From assembly GCF_013122565.1 (NCBI RefSeq), contig NZ_CP053258.1: a DNA stretch of 64,000 bases. One strand, given 5' to 3'. Made by a program: the position numbers and the translations under genes. The notes beneath the pieces were generated by a model that was given only the letters and a program-made list of their open reading frames with translations, searched no databases and was not told where the DNA came from. Shown one piece after another: positions 35,102 through 35,326 of this stretch (positions are counted from its first letter, which is position 1; the number at the start of each line of letters is the position of its first letter). This DNA is from Escherichia coli (GTDB lineage Bacteria; Pseudomonadota; Gammaproteobacteria; Enterobacterales; Enterobacteriaceae).

Positions 35102-35311
35102 ATGGGCAAATTAGGTGAAAACGTTCCGCTTCTTATCGATAAAGCCGTAGATTTCATGGCATCAAGCCAGGCGTTCCGGGAGTATCTGAAAAAACTTCCT
35201 CCCCGTAACGCGATTCCGTCCGGAATACCCGATGAAAGCGTGCCGTTATATCTACAACGTCTGGAGTATTATCGTCGGCTTTATCGGCCGAAGCAGGTAG
35301 AGGGGCAGTAA
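35102..35311 (+). CDS. yibT: Small protein YibT
   Basis: 69 aa ORF between yibL and mtlR, as in K-12. Confidence 0.7.
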
Positions 35312-35326
35312 GCAGACGTTGCTTAC
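35308..35326. terminator. Bidirectional hairpin shared by convergent yibT and mtlR
   Basis: GTAAGCA-gacgt-TGCTTAC followed by TTTT; both stop codons lie inside the stem. Confidence 0.55.

Follow-up and report, generated by a model that had tools for sequence, protein, structure and literature searches.

Results and discussion

Genes and features of the yibT-mtlR locus

We analyzed a stretch of 64,000 nucleotides from Escherichia coli (contig NZ_CP053258.1 of assembly GCF_013122565.1), called the window below, in the region that carries the Escherichia arrangement mtlA-mtlD-mtlR / yibT / yibL. The genes yibT and mtlR are convergent, and their stop codons lie 11 nt apart (positions 35312-35322, GCAGACGTTGC). 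The mtlADR operon responds to mannitol. In K-12, yibT is known from the literature to be activated by PhoB. A query of 1,051 bp covering the gene junction (window 34900-35950) gave matches in 5,412 of 5,426 complete E. coli genomes at identities of up to 99.0%, and the annotation of the matched loci, in more than 5,400 genomes, was always mtlR/yibT/mtlD. The MtlR protein encoded in the window is 97% identical to that of the E. coli species representative, and the DNA may stem from a Shigella or an atypical Escherichia lineage. An Rfam search of positions 34300-36100 with a permissive E-value threshold returned no match. The features discussed in the following sections are collected in Table 1.

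Table 1. Genes, RNA hairpins and a mapped RNA 3' end at the yibT-mtlR junction (positions in the window)
Feature	Position	Strand	Description
yibT CDS	35102-35311	+	69 aa; ends with CAG TAA; 100% identity to K-12 YibT
mtlR CDS	35323-35910	-	195 aa (MtlR); ends with AAG TAA; last gene of mtlA-mtlD-mtlR
Stop-codon hairpin	35307-35327		8-bp stem AGTAAGCA/TGCTTACT, 5-nt loop GACGT; both stop codons inside
U-rich tail, yibT strand only	35327-35344	+	TTTT GGAAGGC TTTTTTT; antisense of the MtlR C-terminal codons K-K-A-F-Q-K
Term-seq 3' end, K-12 3776158(-)	35324	+	inside the 3' arm of the stem, between GUUGCUU and ACUUUU; score 40,273; one of three conditions
Hairpin in the mtlR ORF	35345-35367	-	GAGCUGAUUU-CCA-AAAUCAGCUU, 10 bp, followed by A7 (35344-35338; codons TTA AAA AAA)
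GC-rich hairpin	35457-35481	+	GTGGCGGCG-GTGGTAA-CGCCGCCAC; mtlR codons VAALPPPP; about -19 kcal/mol on either strand; no U tract after it

Anatomy of the stop-codon hairpin

A repeat finder identified an exact inverted repeat at the junction of the two genes, with arms at 35307-35314 and 35320-35327. The 5' arm holds the TAA codon of yibT (35309-35311, plus strand), and the 3' arm holds the complement of the TAA codon of mtlR (35323-35325, which the gene reads from 35325 to 35323 on the minus strand). The sequence-only reading of this DNA had described convergent yibT and mtlR genes with one hairpin enclosing both stop codons, and this description is correct. Its loop of 5 nt is likewise confirmed, while its stem of 7 bp has to be extended by one pair to 8 bp. 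The 19-mer folds with an energy of -6.8 kcal/mol on either strand (z-scores of -3.4 and -4.4), a value equalled by one of 200 shuffled sequences, and together with its 6-nt flanks the hairpin reaches -9.5 kcal/mol. With three G-C pairs among the eight, the stem is weak and AU-rich.

The T-runs that had been proposed to flank the hairpin on both sides are present on one side only. On the yibT strand the stem is followed by a T-rich tail (TTTTGGAAGGCTTTTTTT), whereas the longest T run in the tail of the mtlR strand (TGCCCCTCTACCTGCTTCGG; mtlR-side tail TGCCCCTCTACC) has two residues. The U-rich tail of yibT is at the same time the antisense of the last codons of mtlR, and these codons are equally conserved in species that lack yibT. 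Thus the tail exists for coding reasons and predates any role in termination.

A consensus scan for promoters and terminators over positions 34300-36300 of both strands reported no terminator-like site. The stop-codon stem itself satisfies the stem rule of the scan, and neither tail contains five T residues in 8 nt. In the yibT direction the U tract is interrupted (U4-GGAAGGC-U7), and the first 8 nt behind the stem include fewer than five T. A bidirectional intrinsic terminator is characterized by an A tract ahead of its stem and a U tract behind it; for mtlR this arrangement is missing, as is evident from the minus-strand tail given above. We also found no entry for the locus in the TERMITe supplements or in the supplements of a terminator-prediction paper (PMC9262186).

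Contribution of coding sequence and chance to the stem

Most of the stem is specified by the ends of the two genes. The pairs 35307/35327 and 35308/35326 are supplied by the last codons, CAG in yibT and AAG in mtlR, and the pairs 35309-11/35323-25 are formed by the two TAA codons, whose complementarity is given by the convergent arrangement. Since both genes end with AG-TAA, five of the eight pairs are automatic, and the only free intergenic pairs are 35312-14/35320-22 (GCA/TGC) in the 11-nt spacer. When the coding flanks were kept fixed, 1.0% of random 11-nt spacers folded at an energy equal to or below that of the real sequence (-9.5 kcal/mol), and 2.2% of the shuffles of the real spacer did so. 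The stop-codon hairpin is therefore above chance, but modestly.

More generally, any two convergent genes that share a stop codon and are separated by a short spacer obtain a 3-bp palindrome for free, so that finding the two stops within a single hairpin says less in favour of a terminator than it seems to. Weak hairpins at places where convergent genes meet are common and well catalogued, and the original claim is of little consequence. The more informative outcome of our analysis is the true 3'-end architecture of the locus, in which the yibT mRNA ends inside mtlR, at the GC-rich hairpin.

RNA 3' ends published for K-12

We compared the locus with 3'-end maps of K-12, using the relation window position = 3811482 - K-12 coordinate, which was verified by placing the published 61-mers in NC_000913.3. 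The Term-seq study of Adams et al. 2021 (PMC7815308) covers three conditions, namely LB at OD 0.4, LB at OD 2.0 and M63. Its Supplementary file 1 lists the end 3776158(-), which falls into the stop-codon hairpin, with the label 'primary, antisense'. The one condition in which this end appears is most likely the OD 2.0 sample, judging from the position in the file. The end lies within the stem and not in the U tract, a position that agrees neither with clean intrinsic termination nor with simple stalling of an exonuclease.

The same dataset contains a yibT-strand end at 3775997/8(-) in all three conditions, with scores of 31,772 and 107,627. The score of 107,627 comes from the same sample as the end of 40,273 and is about 2.7-fold stronger, although steady-state 3'-end read counts of this kind are not equal to termination efficiencies. 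The dominant yibT end is thus not located within the U tract of the stop-codon hairpin; the end at 3776158 is in the 3' arm, and the other ends are stronger. A second source, the TRS study (PMC10687069), re-analyzed the Term-seq data of Dar & Sorek and the RNAtag-seq data of Barsheshet. In the Dar & Sorek data it reports 3775994(-) as 'Distant primary yibT', a label used only where no end is found within 100 nt of the stop codon, and 3776142(+) as 'Internal mtlR'. The ends given for the Barsheshet data are 3775993(-) and, on the plus strand, 3776031 and 3776290.

The mtlR-strand ends in the TRS study are located 15 nt before the mtlR stop codon (3776142, window 35340, which is 5 nt after the stem of the hairpin in the mtlR ORF) and about 130 nt past it, in antisense orientation to yibT (3776290); none is at the stop-codon hairpin. 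Similarly, the table of Adams et al., obtained from cultures without mannitol, has no plus-strand end at K-12 377614x-377618x. The 3'-end data were all obtained in LB or in glucose or other minimal media lacking mannitol, where the mtlR-strand signal is weak and may miss termination at the hairpin that takes place upon induction of mtlADR. The bicyclomycin table of the same study (PMC7815308) places a Rho termination region at K-12 3775884(+), inside mtlR (window about 35598, minus strand; Rho score 4.16, p = 1.2e-14). This is the only nearby region in Supplementary file 2, where we found no entry on the K-12 minus strand.

Farther upstream in the operon, the mtlA-mtlD spacer (window about 37100-37290, minus strand) contains REP-like palindromes and a hairpin, CCCTCTCC-ACAT-GGAGAGGG, that is followed by TTTGGG. 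A strong 3' end has been reported in this spacer at K-12 3774365(+), with a TRS ratio of 0.86-0.90 and the label 'Alternative primary in TU mtlA' (PMC10687069). Most mtl transcripts may therefore stop ahead of mtlD and mtlR.

Overlap between the transcripts of the two convergent neighbors is evident from two sources. ExcludonFinder (NAR 2025) includes mtlR-yibT in its Table 1 among 165 convergent excludons detected in at least 50% of 58 MG1655 transcriptomes, a call that cannot tell a short overlap from a long one, and the Term-seq end about 160 nt inside mtlR backs a long antisense overlap. The pair thus belongs with the convergent excludons as far as overlapping transcripts are concerned.

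These maps bear on the proposal that the hairpin is a compact bidirectional terminator. Formation of an end in the yibT direction is plausible. Action in both directions is not supported, in view of the lack of a U tract on the mtlR side and of any site in the scan, the main yibT end about 160 nt beyond the hairpin, the absence of a reported mtlR-strand end at this place, in cultures that all lacked mannitol, and the listing of the pair as an excludon. Read-through of the hairpin on both strands, which had been named as the observation that would speak against the proposal, is largely what the published maps contain, with the mtlR direction sampled at low expression.

The GC-rich hairpin and the main yibT 3' end

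The main yibT-strand end (3775997/8, or 3775993/4 in the TRS study) corresponds to window 35484-85 for the former pair, 3-4 nt after the GC-rich hairpin in the mtlR coding sequence. This hairpin marks the main end of the yibT strand in two independent K-12 Term-seq studies, and the yibT 3' UTR that extends to it is about 170 nt long and antisense to mtlR. In the 100 nt past the end at the GC-rich hairpin, C residues outnumber G residues (C/G ratio of 1.3-1.7).

Dar & Sorek 2018 described Rho-dependent 3' ends that sit directly after stable stem-loops without a U tract. The GC-rich hairpin resembles these protective stem-loops in its stability, in the missing U tract, in the end directly downstream and in the adjacent stretch with more C than G; it is this hairpin, and not the stop-codon hairpin, that marks the main yibT end in the manner of the protective class. 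Unlike the protective stem-loops of that study, it is situated within the coding sequence of the opposing gene.

On the yibT strand, the GC-rich hairpin has a mean energy of -14.6 kcal/mol in 40 loci with yibT versus -8.8 kcal/mol in 42 loci without yibT (Mann-Whitney p = 1.4e-8, a value that ignores the kinship among loci). Part of this difference in stability is probably due to preferred Ala and Pro codons.

Distribution and variation across Enterobacteriaceae

Scanning with MtlR yielded 80 loci from Enterobacteriaceae. The yibT gene was found tail-to-tail with mtlR in Escherichia, Salmonella, Citrobacter, Klebsiella, Raoultella, Phytobacter and Pseudocitrobacter, as well as in a few other Enterobacteriaceae, some of which carry the label Pluralibacter or Enterobacter sp. 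The gene lies between mtlR and yibL, in the opposite orientation, in Escherichia, Salmonella, Citrobacter and Klebsiella. The gene is missing in most Enterobacter, Lelliottia, Leclercia, Kosakonia and others, and yibL there follows mtlR after about 60 nt on the same strand. Where yibT is present, the stop-to-stop distance ranges from 2 to 28 nt, apart from overlapping loci; in Klebsiella and Raoultella, mtlR has three additional codons, and its coding sequence overlaps that of yibT by 12 nt. The two stop codons are essentially never far enough apart to accommodate a conventional terminator.

The spacer itself is variable within E. coli. Among the 5,426 complete genomes, the 11-nt allele of K-12 type (GCAGACGTTGC) was found in 3,996, a 10-nt allele of B2/ST131 type (GCGAAAGTAC; e.g. 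EC958) in 1,351, and a 4-nt allele (GTAA) in one, strain CUPF09 (NZ_CP182142.1). The hairpin of the 10-nt allele, with a stem of 6-7 bp, is weaker (-6.0/-7.1 kcal/mol), and alleles with 4-nt spacers are left with a 5-bp AU stem of -2.7 kcal/mol. E. whittamii and another Escherichia sp. also have a 4-nt spacer, GCGA; both GTAA and GCGA present a GNRA tetraloop pattern on the mtlR strand.

Among other species, the stop-codon hairpin is absent from Salmonella (0.0 kcal/mol) and from most Citrobacter. E. albertii has a strong hairpin with GCG/CGC in place of the GCA/TGC of E. coli, both sides being changed. Two Citrobacter species carry an unrelated hairpin, TAAAGCG-GAG-CGCTTTA, that includes both stop codons, and hairpins enclosing both stops also occur in C. 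werkmanii and Phytobacter ursingii. Given the absence of the hairpin in Salmonella, the gene overlap in Klebsiella and Raoultella, and the alleles with 4-nt spacers, we consider the stop-codon hairpin dispensable.

For the comparison between lineages, we counted in-register pairs and randomized spacers, since spacer lengths of 2-28 nt make the alignment ambiguous. At least three in-register spacer pairs were present in 6 of 20 unique loci with complementary stop codons, versus 5.3% expected. This excess could reflect weak selection, possibly for a symmetric function, and it could equally reflect a mutational tendency to perfect quasi-palindromes.

Interpretation of the stop-codon hairpin

In our view the stop-codon hairpin is a real but ordinary structure that serves yibT, at best, as a weak terminator or 3'-end barrier acting in one direction. 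The reading that we prefer, at about even confidence, is that the hairpin is for the most part forced by coding sequence and plays no more than a leaky role on the yibT side, in a locus where the convergent transcripts overlap. The hairpin would owe its existence mostly to geometry, the AG-TAA ends of the genes giving five pairs and the 11-nt spacer of Escherichia adding three. For yibT transcripts, the weak AU-rich stem and the following UUUU-GGAAGGC-UUUUUUU would act as a leaky intrinsic-type pause or terminator, or else as a weak barrier to 3'-5' exonucleases; the mechanism, leaky termination or trimming, is what we infer, whereas the anatomy, the pattern across species and the positions of the K-12 ends are shown directly. 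Ribosomes would lower the efficiency further. Li et al. (PMC4824070) observed that a terminator located a few bp after a stop codon was almost completely repressed by the ribosome, and with the stop codon of yibT located in the 5' arm, ribosomes terminating there would be expected to melt the stem and to weaken termination.

Most yibT transcripts run about 160 nt antisense into mtlR and end after the GC-rich stem-loop of -19 kcal/mol. A GC-rich stem-loop without a U tract at such an end would be the signature of transcripts that are terminated by Rho and trimmed by exonucleases, by analogy with the Dar & Sorek class. The mtl transcripts are already thinned upstream, at the strong end of the mtlA-mtlD spacer and in the Rho region of mtlR; those that remain either appear to be trimmed back to the hairpin in the mtlR ORF or extend into antisense yibT. 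As the transcripts of yibT and mtlR overlap, the locus is an overlapping convergent pair that is not insulated by a bidirectional terminator.

Intrinsic terminators of E. coli may be taken for comparison. The stop-codon hairpin is like them on the yibT strand, where a stem-loop followed by U-rich sequence stands at the end of the gene and a Term-seq 3' end was mapped in one condition. It is unlike them in that its stem of 8 bp has three G-C pairs, its U tract is interrupted and it is rejected by the scan; moreover, the mapped end is within the stem, the stop codon is in the 5' arm, and the major end is elsewhere. A canonical bidirectional intrinsic terminator, as the sequence-only reading had suggested, would have a single stem-loop, with an A tract on one side and a U tract on the other, that halts transcription from both directions. 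Such a terminator appears highly improbable to us, even though the palindromic stem folds equally well on both strands and the yibT side does have U runs. The plus strand has no A tract 5' of the stem and therefore leaves mtlR without a U tract; the scan rejects even the yibT side; the stem is weak and AU-rich; read-through is documented on both strands; and with both stop codons inside the stem, terminating ribosomes would block its folding.

Another class of terminators, found between convergent E. coli genes, offers a rival explanation. The overlapping bidirectional terminators (Ju et al. 2019; Wang et al. 2022, e.g. ynaJ-uspE) are Rho-independent, are unlike intrinsic terminators and need an RNA stem-loop in the region of overlap. 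In this model, the hairpin would pause polymerases arriving from either side, and head-on and trailing collisions would release both, so that the transcripts overlap only across the hairpin. The yibT/mtlR hairpin has the required placement, being an RNA stem-loop within the region shared by the convergent transcripts, and it resembles the terminators of Ju, Li & Liu 2019 and Wang et al. 2022 as a single hairpin between convergent genes that makes a poor intrinsic terminator either way. A short overlap would also lead to a listing by ExcludonFinder, and several lineages have such a hairpin with a sequence of their own. We nevertheless regard this type of mechanism as unlikely here. Paired sharp ends, as seen for the terminators of these studies, are not present in the datasets, where yibT transcripts run at least 160 nt beyond the hairpin; the main yibT-strand end is 160 nt past it in every dataset, and no mtlR-strand end flanks it in these datasets without mannitol. 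Collisions would furthermore need simultaneous strong transcription of both genes, whereas mtlADR and yibT respond to different signals, mannitol and PhoB, respectively, and the mtl transcripts are thinned upstream.

At the other extreme, the hairpin could be a by-product without function, in which a 5-bp inverted repeat follows from the TAA and ...AG codons, while drift or template-switch 'quasi-palindrome correction', the latter being a known mutational bias, supplied the additional pairs. The 3' end at the hairpin would then be a decay intermediate. Five of the eight pairs are forced, and the remaining pairs reach a significance of only about 1-2%. The spacer turns over rapidly with insertions and deletions (3,996, 1,351 and one E. 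coli genomes with the three alleles), Salmonella and most Citrobacter have no hairpin, Klebsiella has overlapping genes, and the Term-seq end lies within the stem in one condition only. Against this explanation stand the Term-seq peak with a score of 40,273 at the hairpin and the compensatory change in E. albertii together with the independent hairpins elsewhere, which exceed chance, although a mutational bias towards palindromes would look alike. We find a complete lack of function fairly unlikely.

A regulatory extension of the preferred reading can also be envisaged. The stop-codon hairpin, as a leaky valve, would determine in what proportion two forms of yibT mRNA are made, a short form ending at this hairpin and a long form with a 3' UTR of about 170 nt capped by the GC-rich hairpin, and the long form, whose UTR is antisense to the last third of mtlR, would lower the synthesis of the MtlR repressor. 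We rate this as quite improbable. If it were true, induction of yibT by PhoB or in stationary phase would cut MtlR synthesis by an excludon mechanism, phosphate or growth-phase signals would be coupled to the expression of the mannitol operon, and the apparent co-occurrence of the GC-rich hairpin and yibT across genera would reflect selection on the antisense RNA.

A conserved hairpin at the end of the mtlR coding sequence

The hairpin in the mtlR ORF and the following A7 lie within the last 14 codons of the gene. We calculated codon entropies across 82 loci of Enterobacteriaceae. The codons of the stem are little variable (GAG 0.17, CTG 0.33, ATT 0.50, ATC 0 and AGC 0 bits), and so are the rare TTA (0.83 bits) and the two AAA codons (0.10 and 0.50 bits), in comparison with entropies of 1.5-1.8 bits in the loop and 0.7-1.6 bits in the four codons that follow the element. 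These values point clearly to strong synonymous-site constraint on the hairpin and the A7 tract. The hairpin is kept in loci with or without yibT; 95.3% of the cells are paired, and two pairs have changed on both sides.

Programmed frameshifting at the in-frame heptamer A_AAA_AAA, 10 nt upstream of the stop-codon hairpin, was considered and rejected: the extensions in the alternative frames are not conserved (3-145 codons), and the frame of the yibL ATG relative to mtlR is 0, 1 or 2 across species that lack yibT. For the perfect 9-bp palindrome AGCTGATTT-N3-AAATCAGCT, a role as DNA operator was considered as well. Since G.U pairs work only on the sense strand of mtlR, a role of this palindrome at the RNA level is weakly favoured.
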